DNA of 7,568 bases, taken from positions 1 to 7,568 of the IMG/VR virus record IMGVR_UViG_3300022559_000060, one strand, 5' to 3'. The translations under genes were made by a program, and so were the position numbers. The notes under the pieces are model-generated. The model was not told where the DNA came from. It saw only the letters and a list, made by a program, of their open reading frames with translations, and made no database searches. This document shows positions 1 to 7,472 of the stretch, one piece after another (within the stretch, counting starts at the first letter, position 1; every line of letters begins with the position of its first letter). Origin of the DNA: a virus.

Positions 1-77
1 GGCGAGGTACGAGCCGGCGCGCAAACCGTCTTTCTGTCCTCTTTTCTGCATTTATACTTAGTGCGCTTCGCATAATG
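1..77. repeat. Left copy of the 77-bp terminal direct repeat (identical to 7492-7568)
   Basis: Base-by-base comparison: ggcgaggtacgagccggcgcgcaaaccgtctttctgtcctcttttctgcatttatacttagtgcgcttcgcataatg occurs at both ends. Confidence 0.95.
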
Positions 78-95
78 GCCGGCCTTATGTTGAGC
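65..95 (+). other. dif-like XerC/XerD recombination site (candidate attP)
   Basis: GCTTCGCATAA-TGGCCGGCC-TTATGTTGAGC compared with E. coli dif GGTGCGCATAA-TGTATA-TTATGTTAAAT. The left arm matches 9/11 and the right arm 8/11 (TTATGTT intact). The central region is 9 nt and GC-palindromic instead of 6 nt. Confidence 0.5.
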
Positions 96-147
96 GGCGT
101 CCGGAAAATCCGCGCAGCTCCGGGCGTCGGTTAACATAGGGCCGATT

Positions 148-384
148 ATGCGACGGCCTATCTCTCTCGAAATTCCCGCTCACCTGGTCGAATCCGCCCA
201 GCTCTACGCCCCGACCCGCCATGAACTCGACGCCGTTTGCTACGTCCTGGAGCGATACCCAGACGTGGTTGCGGATATGCGTCGGTTGACTGCCAGAGTC
301 GCCCAGCTCGATGCCGAATCAGCCCAGCTCGACCACCTGGTTACCGAACTCCAGGCAATCGCCCGGCGTGTCCTCGATCTTTAG
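148..384 (+). CDS. Putative ribbon-helix-helix DNA-binding protein with C-terminal coiled coil (78 aa)
   Basis: High GC3 ORF with a weak SD AGGG at 138-141. The N-terminus ISLEIPAHLVESAQLYA...LDAVCYVLERY fits a beta-strand/helix/turn/helix RHH pattern. The C-terminus RRLTARVAQLDAESAQLDHLVTELQAIARRVL is heptad-like. It aligns without gaps to the 516-782 product. Confidence 0.6.
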   Translation: MRRPISLEIPAHLVESAQLYAPTRHELDAVCYVLERYPDVVADMRRLTARVAQLDAESAQLDHLVTELQAIARRVLDL

Positions 385-386
385 CA

Positions 387-512
387 GGTACCGTTTCGGT
401 CTTCCTGGTTGTCATCGAGCACCAAAAAAGGTACCAAAACAGTTGACGCCTTCTGCCATTATGGTACTGTTTTCGCTACCTGGTCGCCGACCAGGACAAT
501 AGAAAAGGTACC
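387..512 (+). promoter_or_regulatory. Operator/promoter region: four GGTAC(C) motifs flanked by A/T tracts, bracketing a sigma70-like promoter
   Basis: GGTACC occurs at 387-392, 430-435 and 507-512, and GGTACT at 463-468. The -35 TTGACG is at 443-448 and a candidate -10 TACTGT at 465-470 (16-nt spacer). The inverted repeat AAAACAGT (436-443) / ACTGTTTT (466-473) brackets the promoter (its left arm overlaps the first base of the -35, its right arm the -10). The palindrome CCTGGT-cgccg-ACCAGG lies at 479-495. Confidence 0.45.
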
Positions 513-515
513 GAT

Positions 516-782
516 ATGCTGGTAAAAATTACTGACTTCCCCGACTCCCTGGTCGAAGACCTCAAGCACGCTACCGGCCAAGCGACCGGCTCTAAGGCTG
601 TTTTCTTCGCCGCCTCTAAGTTCGTTGAGATGGCCGAGGAGAACACACGTCTTTCCTTTGAGTGCGCCCAACTTCAAGAGCGAATCGATCATCTTCACGA
701 TGTTCTAGCCAGTGCTCGACACGCTTGCGGCCACTTTCTTGAAACCATCAATCAGCGCGATCTGTTCGAGAAGGATGCCTAA
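516..782 (+). CDS. Putative ribbon-helix-helix DNA-binding protein with coiled coil (88 aa), paralog of the 148-384 product
   Basis: SD AAAGG at 504-508. The N-terminus VKITDFPDSLVEDLKHATGQATGSKAVFFAASKFVE is a classic RHH pattern. The central ENTRLSFECAQLQERIDHLHDVL is heptad-like. The stop lies 3 nt before the next ATG. Confidence 0.6.
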   Translation: MLVKITDFPDSLVEDLKHATGQATGSKAVFFAASKFVEMAEENTRLSFECAQLQERIDHLHDVLASARHACGHFLETINQRDLFEKDA

Positions 783-785
783 GCC

Positions 786-1013
786 ATGAACCCAGAAGAA
801 CTTTATTCGTTTTCCGATAAGGCCCTAAATCTTGACCGAATCCGCGCCTTCTGCGACCAGATCGAGGACTGCCGAAACCCTGATGATTTCTATCTTGCAT
901 CCCAAAAGGCCCACTGGCTTCTGTGTGCTTTTTGGCACGGTTGCAGGCACCAATTCGACCATGCCCGCGAAGTCATTAGCGCCGCCTTAGACAAGGCCGA
1001 AAGCCGATTCTGA
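786..1013 (+). CDS. Hypothetical 75-aa protein, Cys/His-containing, co-transcribed with the RHH gene
   Basis: The ORF is tightly coupled to 516-782 (TAA at 780-782, ATG at 786). Its codons are more AT-rich than those of the structural genes. I recognise no motif; it contains C..C...C..WHGCRH..H. Confidence 0.55.
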   Translation: MNPEELYSFSDKALNLDRIRAFCDQIEDCRNPDDFYLASQKAHWLLCAFWHGCRHQFDHAREVISAALDKAESRF

Positions 1014-1140
1014 TCCCTACTTCTCACTGTTCGCCCGCTTTCCGCAACGGTAGGTGGGCGCCAGGTTTATTCGGTGTTTGGTCCCGGAGGCAATTTCCGT
1101 AGATCTTTGATAGGCGCACCGCCCGCCCAGCTGGCCCACA

Positions 1141-1166
1141 AAGAAAAACCCCGGCTTGCGCCGGGG
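1141..1166 (-). terminator. Rho-independent terminator for the - strand 65-aa gene (also sits between convergent genes)
   Basis: Stem CCCCGGC (1149-1155) / GCCGGGG (1160-1166) with loop TTGC. On the - strand the hairpin is followed by TTTTTCTT (complement of 1141-1148), and it lies 5 nt past the stop of 1172-1369. Confidence 0.8.
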
Positions 1167-1171
1167 CTGTT

Positions 1172-1369
1172 TCAGAACGGTGTTCCCTTGATCCTTTTGA
1201 TTATCCGGTTGCCTAACCACCGCGCTATTTCTTGGTAAACCTCGAAATCTGCGTCTGACTGGCTGCTTCCGTAATCGTTTCTTTCGTCGATTCCGTCTAG
1301 TAACTCTATCGCCTCTTTCACGTTGTCCATTTCTTCTTCGGTCAGAGTGATTTTGTATTCGCTTTTCAT
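1172..1369 (-). CDS. Hypothetical acidic 65-aa protein (moron-like stand-alone cassette)
   Basis: Strong SD GGAGG 8 nt upstream of the ATG on the - strand, and its own intrinsic terminator. GC is about 45% by hand count, against about 65% in a sampled stretch of the Zot-like gene. The protein has an acidic core (EEEMDNVKEAIELLDGIDERNDYGSSQSDADFE) and a basic tail (NRIIKRIKGTPF). Confidence 0.7.
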   Translation of the reverse strand: MKSEYKITLTEEEMDNVKEAIELLDGIDERNDYGSSQSDADFEVYQEIARWLGNRIIKRIKGTPF

Positions 1370-1397
1370 CGTGGCCGCCTCCTGAGCGATCGTCTAG

Positions 1398-1675
1398 CTG
1401 ACGTCCGTCAGGGGGAGCCCCAGCGGGGTTCTGTCAACGACCGCTTGCGGCCCGGCCTGATCGTTGACGGGTTCACGCTGGGGCTCACACTGGCAGTCAG
1501 TTAGATGATGCGTCTATCAGGCTGTCTTCGATGTGTTAGGCGCTGGAGCGGGTGAGGGGCGCAGCCCCTCAAGGGTCCCCGAAGGGGCTGCTTTTGCTTC
1601 TTGCCGGCGAAGCCGGGTCCACCATCTCTAATGGTGGACTTTTGTGTCATGGTGACACTTTTGGTTGATTTTTGA
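1398..1675 (+). other. Hairpin-dense non-coding block: candidate packaging signal and/or complementary-strand origin
   Basis: Stem-loops are at 1398-1411 (CTGAC/GTCAG), 1554-1570, 1604-1616, 1618-1638 (8 bp) and 1644-1658. A 72-nt nested hairpin spans 1415-1486, with an 11-bp outer stem GAGCCCCAGCG/CGCTGGGGCTC and an 8-bp inner stem GTCAACGA/TCGTTGAC. Alternative pairing is possible at 1562-1590. Several are followed by T tracts on the + strand. Confidence 0.5.
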
Positions 1676-1915
1676 TCAGCTTTTCGCGCGCTTCTTTGGT
1701 TTTTTCGTGGAGCCAAATTCTTCTTTGTATTCAAGGACATCCTTGGTTGTCACCTTGTCCAGATACCGCCATAGAGCAGCGTTCACTAGGTCGGCTTCTG
1801 CGATGTCTTCCCGGGTCTCGATGATCATGTTGATCCGGCGCTCTTCTAGCACCTCTACGAATTCTTCTTTGACCCTGTAGACCTTGCTCACTGGCTCACT
1901 TCTCGTCTGTTGCAT
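1676..1915 (-). CDS. Putative ribbon-helix-helix transcriptional regulator (79 aa), divergent from rep; candidate phage repressor
   Basis: KVYRVKEEFVEVLEERRINMI...EADLVNAALWRYL fits the RHH strand/helix/helix pattern, with a Lys-rich tail KKPKKRAKS. It is divergent from the Rep gene across an operator-like palindrome. Confidence 0.6.
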   Translation of the reverse strand: MQQTRSEPVSKVYRVKEEFVEVLEERRINMIIETREDIAEADLVNAALWRYLDKVTTKDVLEYKEEFGSTKKPKKRAKS

Positions 1916-2002: not shown

Positions 2003-3229
2003 ATGCTCGACAAACTGCACCTTTTCGTCCCTTTCCGCCTCGAGCACATCAAGTTGCTTGGCGCTGACGGTCGTAGCTACCCGGTGCACTTCGTCGACCT
2101 CGAAGCCCTGGAAGTTCCCCTGCAAGGCCAGATCAGCAGGGCAGACGATGGCAGCCTCCATGCCGAACGCCTGCGCCACGCCTGGGAATCGCTTTCTACC
2201 GGTTTCACACCGCTGGCGTTCAAGGTCTTTCACGAGTCGCTCGGTAAGCGACTGATGCCCGGCATCGAGATTAAGGCTAGTCCGGCCAAGCTCCTTCAGG
2301 GGCACAACGTTTTCGGCCCTGTCTGCATCGAGAAGGGTGCTTTGGTCATGCTCAAGTGGATTGCCGGCACCTATCCGAAGCTCGCGCAGATGCTCGATAT
2401 CTCGGCCACCCAGGTCTACGCCCTGGACTGCACCTATAGCGCCCGCATGCCCAACGAGCGCACCGCTCAGCAGGTGATTGATGCATTGCGCGGCACCTCC
2501 AACGGCCACACCAAGAGCCGTGGCGACAACTACCAGACAACCGCGTATTGGGGCGCTAAGGAATCGCGCCTCAAGCGCCTCAAGGCGTATTTGAAACACC
2601 CCGAGTTTCTGCGTCAGCTCGAAGACGCCAAGCGGGCAGGGCGGGGCGATTTGTCTGCTGCTCGCACCATGAAGGTACTGAGCAACCCATTACTCCAGGA
2701 GCACGCTAAGGACTTGCTCCGTTTCGAGGCCACGGTCATGCACCGATGGCTTGAGCGTCGCGGCGTCTCGTCGCGGCTTGTTGATCTGATCGCGCACCAG
2801 CAGAAGCTCCTAGGGGAGGGGCGTTGTTTTATTCAGGAGTGCTGGCAGGCGGTTACAGCCCCGATCTTTGCGGCCTTTGAAGGTATGACGATGAAACAGA
2901 TTGATGATGAAAAAGTGCTGGCCGCACTTATTGAGAAACACACCAAGTACGACCGCCACGGCAAGCCCAGTGACAGCTATGCCAAAAACCTCTTCCGGAC
3001 CTATCTCAGCCTGAAAGATTACGGCTGGGAACACACGAAAGATCTCGGCCCGCGCACGTTCTACCGCCACGTTAACGACATCTGCGAAGCTGGTCTCTCC
3101 AAAGCCGCCTTGCAGAAGCTCCACGAAGTGGACCGGGGTAATGTCGTGCCGCTGCTGCGCTTCGTGCAGGTCGACTTCTCGGCCCAGCGCCCTGACTGGT
3201 ACGTCGAGCCAACTGTTGAGGCTGCCTGA
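2003..3229 (+). CDS. Rolling-circle replication initiation protein, filamentous-phage gene II/X-type family
   Basis: 408-aa ORF with high GC3. The N-terminus MLDKLHLFVPF and the motif KASPAKLLQGHNVFGP resemble gene II-type phage replication initiators as I recall them. It is the first gene of the long + strand operon. There is no clear SD before the ATG at 2003. Confidence 0.75.
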   Translation: MLDKLHLFVPFRLEHIKLLGADGRSYPVHFVDLEALEVPLQGQISRADDGSLHAERLRHAWESLSTGFTPLAFKVFHESLGKRLMPGIEIKASPAKLLQGHNVFGPVCIEKGALVMLKWIAGTYPKLAQMLDISATQVYALDCTYSARMPNERTAQQVIDALRGTSNGHTKSRGDNYQTTAYWGAKESRLKRLKAYLKHPEFLRQLEDAKRAGRGDLSAARTMKVLSNPLLQEHAKDLLRFEATVMHRWLERRGVSSRLVDLIAHQQKLLGEGRCFIQECWQAVTAPIFAAFEGMTMKQIDDEKVLAALIEKHTKYDRHGKPSDSYAKNLFRTYLSLKDYGWEHTKDLGPRTFYRHVNDICEAGLSKAALQKLHEVDRGNVVPLLRFVQVDFSAQRPDWYVEPTVEAA

Positions 3230-3426: not shown

Positions 3427-3774
3427 ATGCTACTGCTTACCGGCCTGTGCCACGGCTACAAAGCCAATACCCGCCGTAATGGCTCCAACGAATTTACCGA
3501 CCATCTTCTGTTGCTTGAGGTGCAGGACACCAACCAGTACGGCATCCCTGAGACCAAAACGGTCGGCATCAAGCTGTCGAAAGCCGATGTAGAGGGCGGT
3601 TTGCAGCACCTCTATGACCAGCTAAAAGGCAAGGCTCTAACCGTGCCCGTTCGCGTCGGCCCTTGGGCGTCCAAGGCCGGCAACGCCGGTTACGACTTCT
3701 GGCTTTCTGGCGACCGCAAGCCCGTCCAGATGCAAATCAAGCCGCCTGCTTCTGCCGTCCAGGCCGCGAGCTAA
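3427..3774 (+). CDS. Putative ssDNA-binding protein (gene V analog), assigned by position only (115 aa)
   Basis: SD GAGAGGTG at 3413-3420 and high GC3. It occupies the gene V slot between Rep and the small coat/TM genes. I recognise no diagnostic motif. Confidence 0.45.
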   Translation: MLLLTGLCHGYKANTRRNGSNEFTDHLLLLEVQDTNQYGIPETKTVGIKLSKADVEGGLQHLYDQLKGKALTVPVRVGPWASKAGNAGYDFWLSGDRKPVQMQIKPPASAVQAAS

Positions 3775-4190: not shown

Positions 4191-4400
4191 ATGCAACTGA
4201 ACAAGCACTTCATCAAGAAAATCGGCCTCGGCGCTGCCGTTGCTCTCTCGGCTGTAGCCGGCTCCGTCTATGCGGCAGTCCCGGCCGAAGCCACCGCGGC
4301 GCTGGATACCGCGGGCACCGACGTCGGCACCATCGGCTGGGCCGTCTTCGCTGTGATCATCGCCGCGATGGCGTTCAAGTACATGCGCCGCGCCCTGTAA
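4191..4400 (+). CDS. Major coat protein precursor (g8p-like, 69 aa)
   Basis: SD GAGGT lies 7 nt upstream. The 28-aa signal peptide ends in SVYA. The 41-aa mature part has an acidic N-terminus (AVPAEATAALDTAGTD), a hydrophobic core (IGWAVFAVIIAAMAF) and a basic C-terminus (KYMRRAL). A strong terminator follows, as after gene VIII in Ff phages. Confidence 0.85.
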   Translation: MQLNKHFIKKIGLGAAVALSAVAGSVYAAVPAEATAALDTAGTDVGTIGWAVFAVIIAAMAFKYMRRAL

Positions 4401-4476: not shown

Positions 4477-4548
4477 ATGAGCTACGAACTGTACGTCCTG
4501 ATCCTTACCACCCTGGCGTTTTATCTCGTGTTTTTTGGGCGGGTGTGA
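4477..4548 (+). CDS. 23-aa hydrophobic micro-ORF (MSYELYVLILTTLAFYLVFFGRV), absent from the ORF track
   Basis: SD GGGGA lies 6 nt upstream of the ATG at 4477. The peptide has a single TM-like span. Its stop TGA (4546-4548) lies 1 nt before the ATG at 4550 of the g3p-like gene. Confidence 0.5.
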   Translation: MSYELYVLILTTLAFYLVFFGRV

Positions 4549-4549
4549 T

Positions 4550-5941
4550 ATGCGCAGACTTAGGCTGTATTTTTCGCTGTTGCTGCTGGTTGTTTTGGCA
4601 GGGGGGTATTCGGTGTCTACTTTTGCCGAAGACTATTACTGGACTACCAACTTTTCCGGCCAAATGCGGTTCTCTTCACCAGTTGAGGCCTGCACTTATT
4701 CAGGTCGCGCCTCCACACAAAATTGGTTTCCTGTTCGTAATACAGATATACAGTTCCGTTGCCATCGTACCTGTGCAAGTAACGAGGCATTTACTGGCTG
4801 CCCATCTAATTACGCCACCAATGTTCTCGTTTACCGGGGTGGCGATGGGTGCACCTCTCCCGCCGTGTACAACAATCAAACGGGCTTATGCGAAGCTCCT
4901 CAGCCCAGCCGCTGTGAATCCACCATCGGCCAGGTCGTCACGCACGAACACAAGTTGAAAGAAGCGGTTGGCCAGCCGCAGATCGAACCGCCTGGATCGG
5001 TCTGCGCCAATAGCTGCCAGTACGTCTTCGGCTTCACCGCGCCCAGCAACGTCTACGCCTACACCAGCGGTAATCCGCCTGGCGTGTTTGGCGTTTACAG
5101 CTATACCGGCAACGGCATCGAGTGCAACGAAGACACGCGCAAGGACCCGGGCAGTCCCGGTCAGCAGACTGATCCCGACGAAACCCCAACCCCTGATCCT
5201 GACAACAAATGCCCGGACGGCTACGTCTGGAACGGCACCTTCTGTAGCAAGGAACCGCCCCCGCCATGTGATCCCGAAGTCGAGGTTGGCGGTTGCGACG
5301 ACACCGGGAACCCCGATCCTGACAACCCTGGCGACGGTGACGGCGAAGGGGATGGTAACGGCGATGGAGACGGTGACGGTTCCGGCGAAGGAGATGGCAG
5401 TGGTGATGGCTCCGGTGATGGGTCTGGAGACGGCTCGGGCGAGGGCGAAGGCAGTGGTGACGGCGACGGATCGGGTGAAGACGATGGCGAAGCCGAATGC
5501 GACCCGGCCAAGGATCCAAACAAGTGCGGCAAGTCCAGCGTAGAAGGCGAAGCCTGTGACGCTGAGCTGAAGTGCACCGGCGATGCCGTGCAATGCGCGA
5601 TCCTCCGCCAGCAAAAGGCACTGCGCTGCCACGCCGAAGAACAGGCCGACTTTGAAAAGTACGAACCCGCCATTGAATCCGCGGTCCAGGGCGACGAGTT
5701 CCAGCTGGATGAAGGCTCCGGCGTCATCGACGTGCCTTCTTTCATCAACCAGGGCACCCGCTTTCTGCCGTCCGCCTGTCCTGCCGATGAGAGCTTCAGC
5801 CTGACCACGGCGGGCGGTGCCACTTTCCAGCTCAGCTACGAACCGCTTTGTCGCGCTGCCAGTGACCTGAGCGGCTTGTTTGTGGCCGTGGCTACCGTTC
5901 TTGCCGCCCTGTATGTAGGCGGCTCAGTAAGGGGTCAGTAA
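4550..5941 (+). CDS. Minor coat / adsorption protein (g3p-like, 463 aa from ATG 4550)
   Basis: It has a signal peptide MRRLRLYFSLLLLVVLAGGYSVSTFA, Cys-rich N-terminal domains, a Gly/Asp/Glu/Ser linker and a C-terminal TM anchor LFVAVATVLAALYVGG. It sits in the position of gene III. The track start at 4535 is a TTG; the ATG at 4550 gives a cleaner signal peptide. Confidence 0.75.
   Translation: MRRLRLYFSLLLLVVLAGGYSVSTFAEDYYWTTNFSGQMRFSSPVEACTYSGRASTQNWFPVRNTDIQFRCHRTCASNEAFTGCPSNYATNVLVYRGGDGCTSPAVYNNQTGLCEAPQPSRCESTIGQVVTHEHKLKEAVGQPQIEPPGSVCANSCQYVFGFTAPSNVYAYTSGNPPGVFGVYSYTGNGIECNEDTRKDPGSPGQQTDPDETPTPDPDNKCPDGYVWNGTFCSKEPPPPCDPEVEVGGCDDTGNPDPDNPGDGDGEGDGNGDGDGDGSGEGDGSGDGSGDGSGDGSGEGEGSGDGDGSGEDDGEAECDPAKDPNKCGKSSVEGEACDAELKCTGDAVQCAILRQQKALRCHAEEQADFEKYEPAIESAVQGDEFQLDEGSGVIDVPSFINQGTRFLPSACPADESFSLTTAGGATFQLSYEPLCRAASDLSGLFVAVATVLAALYVGGSVRGQ
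5330..5491 (+). repeat. Low-complexity (G-D/E/S/N)n linker-coding repeat within the g3p-like gene
   Basis: It encodes GDGDGEGDGNGDGDGDGSGEGDGSGDGSGDGSGDGSGEGEGSGDGDGSGEDDGE using varied synonymous codons, so the repeat is at protein level rather than an exact DNA tandem. Confidence 0.85.
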
Positions 5942-6324
5942 TGCAGTTTCTATTCATCGTGCAGATGCTCGTCATCATCCTCGGCCCGCTGGTAAAGATG
6001 GTGCTGAAAATGATCGGGTTCGGCTTCGTCTCTTATGTCGGCTTCAACCTCATCATCGGCCAGGCCCAGGACTACCTGTTCGGGCTGATTGGCGATTTAG
6101 GTCCGGTGATCCAGGGGATTCTCGGGCTTGCCAAGTTCGATGTGGTGGTGAACCTTTACTTCGCCGCTATCTCGACGCGCTTCGTCCTCGCCGGGATCGA
6201 CAAGGCCACCGACCGCAAACGCAATCAGGTCTGGCGCGCGCGGGCGGCACCTCCATCGAAGCCTAAGGAGGCGCCGTTATGCTCGTTATCCGTACCGGCA
6301 AGCCCGGCCATGGCAAGACCCTGA
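5941..6324 (+). CDS. g6p-like small membrane protein (127 aa)
   Basis: The start overlaps the upstream stop (TAATG). The N-terminal two thirds are hydrophobic (FLFIVQMLVIILGPLV, IGFGFVSYVGFNLIIG, VVVNLYFAAI). It lies between the g3p-like and Zot-like genes, as gene VI does in Ff. Its 3' end overlaps the next gene by 46 nt. Confidence 0.6.
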   Translation: MQFLFIVQMLVIILGPLVKMVLKMIGFGFVSYVGFNLIIGQAQDYLFGLIGDLGPVIQGILGLAKFDVVVNLYFAAISTRFVLAGIDKATDRKRNQVWRARAAPPSKPKEAPLCSLSVPASPAMARP

Positions 6325-7472
6325 ACACCATCCGCGAAGTGGACCAGAAGGCCCATGCCGAAGGCCGGGTGGTCTACTTCCACAACATCAACGGCCTCAA
6401 GCCCGATCTGCTGCAAGCGCAGTGGTTCGAGTTCGAAGATCCCGAGAAGTGGTTCGAGCTGCCAAACGATTCGATCATCGTCGTGGACGAAGCTCAGGGC
6501 TGGTTCGGCGCACGCGATCCACGAGCGCGCCCGCCCGAGCACATCACGCGTTTCGAGACCATGCGCCACCAAGGCCACGAGGTGCACCTCGTCACCCAGG
6601 ACCCGCGTTATCTCGATGTTCACCTGCGCCGGCTGTGCAACTCCCATATTCACTACTGGCGCGTGTTCAAGTCTGCCCAGCTGCTGCGCTTCGAGTCGGA
6701 AGTGGTGGTGGAAAAGGTCGAGCTGAAAACCAGCTTCAAGGACGCCGACAAGAAGTCGCTGCGCCTGGATAAGCGTTACTTCGGCGCCTACACCAGCAGC
6801 AACGCCAAGCACCACTTCCAGACCAAGGTGCCGACCAAGTTCATCCTGGCGTTGTGCGTGATCCTTGGTGCCGGCATTCTCGTTTATCGCGCCTATGAGC
6901 GCTACGCCGCCGAGAAAGTGCAGGCCGCAACAGCCACCAGCGCGCCGGCCGGGAGCATGGTCGATCAGGTACGGGATACGGTCGGGTCGTTTATCCGGCC
7001 AAGTGCTTCCGAAGACGGCCAATCGGCACCGCTCACCGTCGAGCAGTACCTGGGCAAGCGCGTGCCCAGGGTACAAGACCTGCCGGCATCCGCGCCGGTG
7101 TATGACGGCCTGACCGGCCCGCAAGCCTTCCCGAAACCGATCTGCATCGCCACCACCGACCGCGATCTGATCGCCCGCAACTACAAGCGCATGCAGGTCG
7201 GCGATAGCGATGAAGGGCTGACGGGGTGCCGATGCAACACCCAGCAGGGCACCCGCCTGGATGTGTCGTTTCGCTTCTGTATGTCGGTCGTGCAGAACGG
7301 CTACTTCGACGACACCAAGCCCGACCGCGGTTCGCCTCAGGACCAGCGAAATCAGCACGCCCAAAACGCCCCGCCACCGACGATGCCTCCCGCTCACGCT
7401 GCAGCTGTGCAACCGGCGGGAGGCCCGAACCTGACCGTCGTGCCGTACCAGAAGGGGCAATTCCTGTGGTGA
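6279..7472 (+). CDS. Zot / g1p-family phage assembly ATPase (397 aa)
   Basis: SD AAGGAGG at 6265-6271. The Walker A motif GKPGHGKT is at aa 7-14, with a Walker B-like IIVVDEAQ and a central TM segment FILALCVILGAGILVY. The domain order matches gene I/Zot proteins. Confidence 0.85.
   Translation: MLVIRTGKPGHGKTLNTIREVDQKAHAEGRVVYFHNINGLKPDLLQAQWFEFEDPEKWFELPNDSIIVVDEAQGWFGARDPRARPPEHITRFETMRHQGHEVHLVTQDPRYLDVHLRRLCNSHIHYWRVFKSAQLLRFESEVVVEKVELKTSFKDADKKSLRLDKRYFGAYTSSNAKHHFQTKVPTKFILALCVILGAGILVYRAYERYAAEKVQAATATSAPAGSMVDQVRDTVGSFIRPSASEDGQSAPLTVEQYLGKRVPRVQDLPASAPVYDGLTGPQAFPKPICIATTDRDLIARNYKRMQVGDSDEGLTGCRCNTQQGTRLDVSFRFCMSVVQNGYFDDTKPDRGSPQDQRNQHAQNAPPPTMPPAHAAAVQPAGGPNLTVVPYQKGQFLW

Follow-up and report, generated by a model that had tools for sequence, protein, structure and literature searches.

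The circular inovirus genome held in IMG/VR record IMGVR_UViG_3300022559_000060 (7,568 nt, analyzed whole and called the window here) carries on its minus strand a 65-amino acid (aa) open reading frame (ORF). The explanation favored on balance, with somewhat better than an even chance of being right, is that this ORF is a genuine accessory gene of the moron type in a 7.49-kb circular inovirus, and that it belongs to a 472-bp module exchanged at a variable intergenic slot. A moron, in the concept of Hendrix and Juhala, is an additional gene situated between two that adjoin each other in related phages; it brings its own transcription signals and deviates in composition. The record is complete, a 77-nt assembly overlap leaving a unique length of 7,491 nt, and its closest isolated relatives are Pseudomonas aeruginosa inoviruses, whose Rep DNA is ~75% identical. 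A first-pass annotation, made from the letters of the sequence, had already picked out the ORF as a cassette with its own signals and suggested that it was acquired separately. The elements on which the argument turns are listed below; L002, L004, L006 and L007 are among the contigs with which the window was compared.

Positions 1102 to 1573, minus strand: exchangeable cassette of 472 bp, made up of a conserved 3' tail, the terminator, the ORF, the Shine-Dalgarno (SD) sequence and the structured leader.
Positions 1369 to 1172, minus strand: the 65-aa ORF (P0001), with an ATG start and a TGA stop at 1174 to 1172.
Positions 1383 to 1378, minus strand: SD sequence AGGAGG, with an 8-nt spacer to the ATG; identical in L002.
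Positions 1168 to 1147, minus strand: intrinsic terminator hairpin from the terminator scan, with a T tract running to about 1139; identical in L002.
Positions 1370 to 1572, minus strand: structured leader, a long imperfect hairpin at about 1384 to 1513 with core arms at 1409 to 1440 and 1461 to 1492 (inverted repeat I1).
Positions 1676 to 1915, minus strand: 79-aa leftward gene (phrog_5219, E 2.4e-18), divergent from Rep and upstream of the cassette.
Positions 1615 to 1655, within 1589 to 1670, no strand assigned: ori-like core, outside the cassette; 93-95% identical in L004, L006 and L007.

The limits of the module are defined by comparison. L002 carries window positions 1102-1572 at 96.4% identity over 471 nt, on a different backbone: its Rep cannot be aligned with that of the window by BLASTP (E 0.04), the small gene that diverges from Rep there bears no relation to the 79-aa gene of the window, and its single-stranded DNA (ssDNA)-binding protein falls in a different PHROG. 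L007 is 92.5% identical to window 65-1101; the homology stops at 1101 and resumes at 1574, and between these points L007 has a different block of 183 nt made of short GC-rich hairpins. L004 is 89.6% identical in DNA across Rep and the 79-aa gene, and its homology likewise stops at 1101; its slot holds the same 183-nt block as L007 and, in addition, a different 64-aa signal-peptide-like ORF. In L006, L008 and L009 the slot has no ORF, and the intergenic length between the two flanking genes is ~195 nt in L008 and ~350 nt in L006, with neither hairpin block present. The Pseudomonas phages 42-1 (139 aa, "RepB") and NEU2023 (168 aa) have unrelated leftward genes there. Because L002 shares the stretch on an unrelated backbone and closer relatives fill the slot differently, window 1102-1573 is a discrete exchangeable module in a variable slot adjoining the conserved ori-like core. 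The exchange slot would lie between the rightward accessory genes and this core. A recombination slot is thereby mapped at which inoviruses exchange small leftward genes and hairpin modules.

The core that borders the slot probably serves as the origin on the Rep side, or else as some other essential cis site. Overlapping stretches of it match the Pseudomonas phages NEU2023, 42-1, 97-1 and 5a-DAzarov, as well as blackswan219-1; several P. aeruginosa inoviruses match such stretches at 80-100%. The core contains two small hairpins, at 1622-1637 and 1644-1658. The 183-nt slot filler (L007 2178-2360, L004 3559-3741) is 94.5% identical between these two phages and contains many short GC stems with GAA/GCAA-type loops (GCCCGAAGGGC, GCGCGAAGCGC, GGGGCAAGCCCC), and it resembles an ssDNA cis element. 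Another indel adjoins the cassette: window 389-1101, with the phrog_8031 gene and a 75-aa ORF, is present in L007 and absent from L002 and L004. The junction in L002 shows ~13 nt of microhomology, window 376-388 against 1102-1114. A Xer-mediated origin was considered for the left boundary, which has a dif-like look (GGTGCGCCTAT...), and was rejected: judged by eye, its XerD arm matches at only 5 of 11 positions, and what is seen at the L002 junction is plain microhomology. The right boundary is straddled by a terminator-like element on the plus strand, a hairpin followed by CTTTTGCTTCTTG at 1561-1600, which no plus-strand gene enters; it could end an antisense transcript, or belong merely to the hairpin array.

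The length of the ORF says little about whether it is a gene. The window holds 87 ORFs of at least 30 aa, and chance could by itself produce an antisense ORF of 65 codons; because antisense ORFs of such length are common here, coding status was decided by conservation. A search of 5.8 billion proteins and 1.84 billion cluster representatives gave a family of ten distinct sequences (P0001-P0003 and P0005-P0011), each 65-66 aa long and free of frameshifts, 42-94% identical to the window protein, and every one of them encoded on a contig of 7.6 kb or less. Between the window and L002 the ORF differs at 13 of 198 positions, nine of the 13 being third codon positions. Six codons are changed synonymously, and the ratio of nonsynonymous to synonymous rates (dN/dS), taken from this single DNA pair with its 13 substitutions, is 0.25 (synonymous versus nonsynonymous p=0.019). 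Synonymous bias, which the first-pass annotation had named as the mark of a coding ORF, is thus present. The ORF is coding and under purifying selection, because the family keeps frame and length, dN/dS is low, the SD sequence and terminator are strong, and a confident amphipathic fold is predicted. The opposite proposal, that an antisense ORF arose by chance within conserved intergenic DNA and is no gene, can point to the abundance of antisense ORFs of the 65-aa class in this genome of 58.5% GC, and to the adjacent non-coding leader, which is conserved even better than the ORF. It would have to explain how ten distinct sequences hold frame and length down to 42% identity with the window protein, the third-position bias of the substitutions with dN/dS well below one, the strong SD sequence, the terminator immediately after the ORF, and the confidently predicted amphipathic fold; its probability is very low.

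The protein family is a previously unnamed orphan of about ten sequences, all of them on small contigs of inovirus size. Searches of phage GenBank records, plasmids, IMG/VR and 185k reference genomes yielded nothing apart from the window and L002. No longer or fused homologs of the 65-aa protein were found, and it shows no paralogy with the neighboring 79-aa gene product. P0004 (5,841 aa) reached E 6e-12 in the exhaustive HMMER search, but this K/E-rich repeat protein owes its score to 20 stretches of 1.5-5 bits each and was discarded as a repeat-summing artefact.

The elements of the moron definition were found as follows: i) the DNA is extra, or the slot differently filled, with respect to L007, L004, L006, L008 and L009, and L002 has the block in an otherwise unrelated backbone; ii) the gene has its own terminator at 1168-1147; and iii) the composition of the ORF is deviant (44.9% GC versus 58.5% for the genome), though the leader in the same cassette has 64.5% GC. 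The SD sequence, the 65-aa ORF and the hairpin with its T tract, all reported in the first-pass annotation, are where they were said to be. The terminator hairpin has 9 pairs (7 of them G-C) and a GCAA loop followed by TTTTTCTTT, with a folding energy of -21.3 kcal/mol (z -3.15) that none of 200 shuffled sequences equalled. The "self-contained" character claimed for the cassette therefore holds for the SD sequence and the terminator only, no sigma-70-like promoter having been found in it (see below).

The compositional claim also proved accurate as a measurement: the ORF had been put at about 45% GC, below the Zot-like gene, which has 62.6%, and no 198-nt segment of the genome is lower (0.1 percentile). 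Its GC at third codon positions (0.56) and its score in a measure like the codon adaptation index (0.44, against 0.56-0.76 in the other genes) are likewise the lowest among 13 genes. The dip, however, is mostly at codon positions 1 and 2 (0.47 and 0.32 GC), and therefore reflects amino-acid composition. With the dip driven by amino acids and the leader at 64.5% GC, GC alone is weak evidence of foreign origin. Separate acquisition, which had been argued from GC, stands instead on the comparison with L002, L007 and L004. As judged from the sequences compared, the moron definition is borne out far better by comparative genomics than by GC content.

On the minus strand of the window no more than two ORFs are convincing as genes, the 79-aa ORF (1915-1676) and the 65-aa ORF (1369-1172). 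The 65-aa gene would be transcribed as the distal gene of a leftward (maintenance/immunity) transcript, because it is on the same strand behind the leftward gene with no terminator between them; the terminator scan found no minus-strand terminator between the 79-aa gene and the cassette, whose own terminator is the first in that direction. The 65-aa protein would then be made during residence of the phage in the cell. The 79-aa gene sits between the ori core and Rep, where phage 42-1 has a helix-turn-helix repressor (HTH_3, 1.4e-15). The arrangement recurs in L002 with other, unrelated genes, a small leftward one followed by a DUF1482-like ORF, also small, and then the cassette with its terminator. 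The first-pass annotation missed this place of the gene in a leftward unit behind a repressor-position gene, as it did the stronger constraint on the leader described below. A second small accessory family of 64-66 aa was seen in L004 (3356-3550, plus strand) and L002 (2453-2653, plus strand), the two members being 40% identical (E 8e-7). It belongs to the same leftward unit, lies directly after the repressor-position gene and has a hydrophobic, signal-like N-terminus and a weak, sub-threshold DUF1482 match.

Several observations weigh against the moron reading. No sigma-70-like promoter was found by a consensus scan of the window or by a relaxed scan of the cassette leader; both scans were of the sigma-70 type, and non-consensus promoters lie outside their reach. 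The 79-aa gene can be called a putative repressor by position only, by analogy with phage 42-1, and its AlphaFold2 (AF2) model is of low confidence (predicted local distance difference test, pLDDT, 61); for that reason a ribbon-helix-helix label considered for this protein was not applied. The dN/dS value comes from one pair of sequences. The 65-aa protein has no family match in Pfam, PHROGs, NCBIfam or PADLOC (best PHROG E 0.023), and structure searches with Foldseek (PDB and BFVD) and exhaustive VIA-align gave only generic antiparallel helical hairpins with background or non-significant scores. Finally, the leader is more conserved than the gene: it differs from L002 at 2 of 203 positions, against 13 of 198 for the ORF (Fisher p=0.003).

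The difference persists when the leader is compared with the synonymous sites of the ORF, of which 6 of about 37 differ from L002 (Fisher p=0.0002), both comparisons being made between two DNA copies, the window and L002. Since it is more conserved than the ORF, the 203-nt leader is functional in its own right. Its fold z-scores are -3.1 as RNA and -3.7 as DNA, the DNA hairpin being ~125 nt long. Rfam gave nothing significant for the leader (best window matches E 0.37-0.59), and an exact-pattern search did not find the hairpin in other viral contigs. It may act as an mRNA leader or, in the form of ssDNA, in cis, for instance as a packaging signal or complementary-strand origin. In Ff-type phages the hairpins of the packaging signal and the minus origin are located in the corresponding part of the genome.

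The strongest rival to the moron reading, less probable than it but still to be taken seriously, is built on this leader. On this view selection would act on the non-coding hairpin, which would serve in the plus ssDNA as an alternative packaging signal or complementary-strand origin, and the ORF would either ride along or encode a trans-acting partner dedicated to the hairpin. Instead of a pure add-on, the cassette would represent one allele of an essential cis module of the intergenic region. Both conservation contrasts and the fold of the leader as DNA speak for it. In L007 and L004, moreover, the cassette is not simply absent but replaced by the hairpin-rich 183-nt block beside the ori-like core, and the location fits, by analogy, that of the Ff-type hairpins. 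However, L008 and L006 manage with intergenic regions of ~195 and ~350 nt that have neither block, so neither is obviously essential, and the ORF, being itself subject to purifying selection and retained in proteins as little as 42% identical to that of the window, is not a mere passenger. A more elaborate version makes the cassette a cis/trans pair, in which the hairpin, read in the phage ssDNA, would be a private packaging signal or complementary-strand origin and the 65-aa protein, by its conserved loop and basic tail, its recognition or recruitment factor, the pair being swappable with the 183-nt block. This version is a long shot; were it true, inoviruses would have interchangeable "intergenic alleles." Under the moron reading as well, the tightly conserved hairpin travelling with the gene is the most interesting loose end.

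The predicted structure of the protein bears on what the gene might do. AF2, run with the 10-sequence alignment, gave a model with a mean pLDDT of 80.6, in which residues 1-10 are extended, 11-31 form a helix, 32-38 a loop and 39-62 a second helix. In this monomer model the helices, 21 and 24 residues long, are antiparallel, both carry an a/d hydrophobic stripe, and the loop bears a conserved DRxDYGSxxSD motif. The window protein has 15 D+E and 9 K+R residues (net charge -6, isoelectric point (pI) 4.5), and the net charge across the family is -4 to -7. The acidic core and short basic tail noted in the first-pass annotation recur in all ten family members, with helix 1 at -5 to -8 and the C-terminal tail at +2 to +5, and its statement that no family could be recognized agrees with the outcome of the profile and structure searches. 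With the threshold relaxed to E up to 1, Pfam gave sub-threshold matches to FCD and FadR_C only. The PDB holds no sequence relative, the rows for 4y6c and 4y6w being repeat-summed 5-bit matches, and the ESM Atlas gave no usable feature match. The protein would thus be an amphipathic antiparallel two-helix hairpin with an acidic helix 1, a conserved loop and a basic tail ending in (T/I)PF. On the model, it would most likely form a dimer with a four-helix bundle, and the predicted fold suggests that this dimeric bundle binds a partner.

A different fold, the ribbon-helix-helix of DNA-binding regulators, was tried on account of the strand-like YKITLT motif at the N-terminus and a G-S-S turn. The order of strand-like segment, helix, turn and helix in the sequence suits it, as do the extended residues 1-10 of the AF2 model. 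It found no backing in the AF2 model or in the structure and hidden Markov model (HMM) searches. The model has two long antiparallel helices that superpose on helical hairpins at 1.4-2.0 Å, with no ribbon-helix-helix protein among the matches listed; Pfam families of this fold are absent even at E up to 1, and NCBIfam gave nothing; and the protein is strongly acidic. A ribbon-helix-helix regulator is therefore very improbable.

On its modeled fold, the protein probably works through binding to another protein and not to DNA. A function of the host or of a competing phage would be the likeliest target, for example through superinfection exclusion or inhibition of a host machine. Such a host- or competitor-directed role is favored because the gene is present with different Rep and regulator modules and absent where the Rep and regulator of the window are shared. 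Inoviruses are chronic residents of bacteria, and their accessory genes often alter the host (superinfection exclusion, motility, toxin carriage). Small accessory proteins of Pseudomonas phages of the kind of Aqs1, Tip and PfsE cause superinfection exclusion by binding pilus proteins. When inovirus hypothetical proteins were expressed in Pseudomonas, 2 of 10 gave superinfection exclusion (PMC6813254). The 472-bp cassette, with one ORF and one hairpin, makes a clean, testable unit for add-on roles of this kind. Its exchange is ordinary phage mosaicism and raises no conflict with current understanding.

Could the protein instead regulate the life cycle of its own phage, for example by acting on the leftward gene product, as its co-regulator or anti-repressor, or by modulating replication? 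It shares a leftward unit with a repressor-position gene in both the window and L002, and the gene in the equivalent slot of phage 42-1 is annotated "replication regulatory protein RepB." However, the 65-aa protein is unrelated to the slot genes of 42-1 and NEU2023 (hhalign probability <1%), and it is absent from close relatives with the same Rep and 79-aa gene, namely L004 (89.6% DNA identity) and L005 and L006 (83% and 70% protein identity in the 79-aa gene). L002 has it with an unrelated Rep and an unrelated regulator, which speaks against its function depending on any one regulator or Rep. A role of this type is unlikely.

The reading of the protein as a DNA mimic or a Gam-like inhibitor of a host nuclease or defense system, which takes up the suggestion of the first-pass annotation of a DNA mimic or an inhibitor of host defense or host machinery, is less likely still. 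The net charge of the family and the low pI of the window protein (4.5) are in its favor, and a distant match was seen in L003, a 59.8-kb tailed-phage contig, to a 76-aa acidic ORF (5887-6117, plus strand) whose start overlaps the upstream stop (GTGA). Immediately after this ORF come the genes of a putative YqaJ-type exonuclease and a putative RecT-type recombinase, both named by eye, so that it stands where lambda has gam. The match is marginal, with an hhalign probability of 88% across 41 columns and an HMM E of 3e-4 from a tiny database; it came from an exact 8-residue pattern and is uncorrected for the size of the collection; L013, the sole relative of the L003 ORF, shares a different part of the protein, which leaves the lead marginal. 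In addition, there is no PHROG or PADLOC sequence match, anti-defense families included, no Ocr, ArdA or Gam fold appears among the structural matches, and the C-terminal quarter of the protein is basic. The likeness to DNA mimics is limited to bulk charge. Nor does the cassette look like a type II toxin-antitoxin pair: it has no co-oriented toxin gene and one conserved ORF, and an overlapping plus-strand ORF (1074-1238) extends across the cassette boundary and lacks conservation.

The rest of the window has the gene order given here, all on the plus strand.

Positions 148 to 384, plus strand: phrog_13909 gene (PHROG match).
Positions 516 to 782, plus strand: phrog_8031 gene (PHROG match).
Positions 786 to 1013, plus strand: 75-aa ORF (from the ORF list).
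Positions 2003 to 3229, plus strand: Rep (Pfam Phage_CRI, 2.6e-45).
Positions 3427 to 3774, plus strand: G5P-like ssDNA-binding protein (library scan).
Positions 4191 to 4400, plus strand: putative coat protein (position and size only).
Positions 4535 to 5941, plus strand: putative g3p-like protein with GDGS repeats (position and size only).
Positions 5941 to 6324, plus strand: putative g6p-like gene (position and size only).
Positions 6279 to 7472, plus strand: Zot-like gene, so labeled in the first-pass annotation (position and size only).

Within the g3p-like adsorption protein, ~11 degenerate repeats of 12/18 nt at 5312-5503 encode a (G-D/S/E-G) linker. A dif-like sequence at 58-100, TTCGCATAA-TGGCCGGCC-TTATGTTGAGC, is a candidate XerC/D-type attachment site; no candidate integrase ORF was seen in the part of the window's ORFs that was scanned.

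Known systems resemble the cassette and its product to different degrees. At the level of fold, the DHp domain of histidine kinases, CsoR, the T3SS co-chaperones AscE/PscE and XseB, all generic alpha-hairpin or four-helix-bundle dimerization modules, superpose on the predicted model at Z 6-7 with a root mean square deviation of 1.4-2.9 Å over 50-65 residues, and XseB-like clusters reach a template modeling (TM) score of 0.70 to the ESM Atlas model of the 65-aa protein. For helical models such Z values are no more than background, and none of the proteins gives a sequence signal; for these reasons the likeness reflects a shared helical-hairpin architecture and not kinship or function. Aqs1 of DMS3, Tip of D3112 and PfsE of Pf4 share with the 65-aa protein a size class of 30-70 aa and the setting of an accessory gene in a Pseudomonas-type phage. 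Aqs1 is also a helical hairpin, though the Foldseek match to it (6v7u) is non-significant (E 5.3, TM 0.47). None of the three has sequence similarity to the 65-aa protein, and PfsE is a short hydrophobic peptide whereas the 65-aa protein is soluble and acidic.

At the level of gene position, the nearest counterparts are the replication regulatory protein "RepB" of phage 42-1 and the hypothetical protein of NEU2023. Their genes occupy the same slot in the same orientation, convergent with rightward genes, and like the 65-aa gene lie downstream of a repressor-position gene and the ori-like core; they are, however, unrelated to it and two to three times longer. The comparison with the morons of temperate phages is the closest in kind. 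As in these, a discrete block with fixed boundaries is missing in close relatives, carries its own SD sequence and terminator, has the lowest GC of the genome, and belongs to a transcription unit that should be active while the phage resides in the cell. Unlike them, it is carried by an ssDNA inovirus in an intergenic location next to the ori, without a promoter of its own that could be found; it takes the place of another hairpin module in two relatives, and it brings along a leader more conserved than the gene itself.

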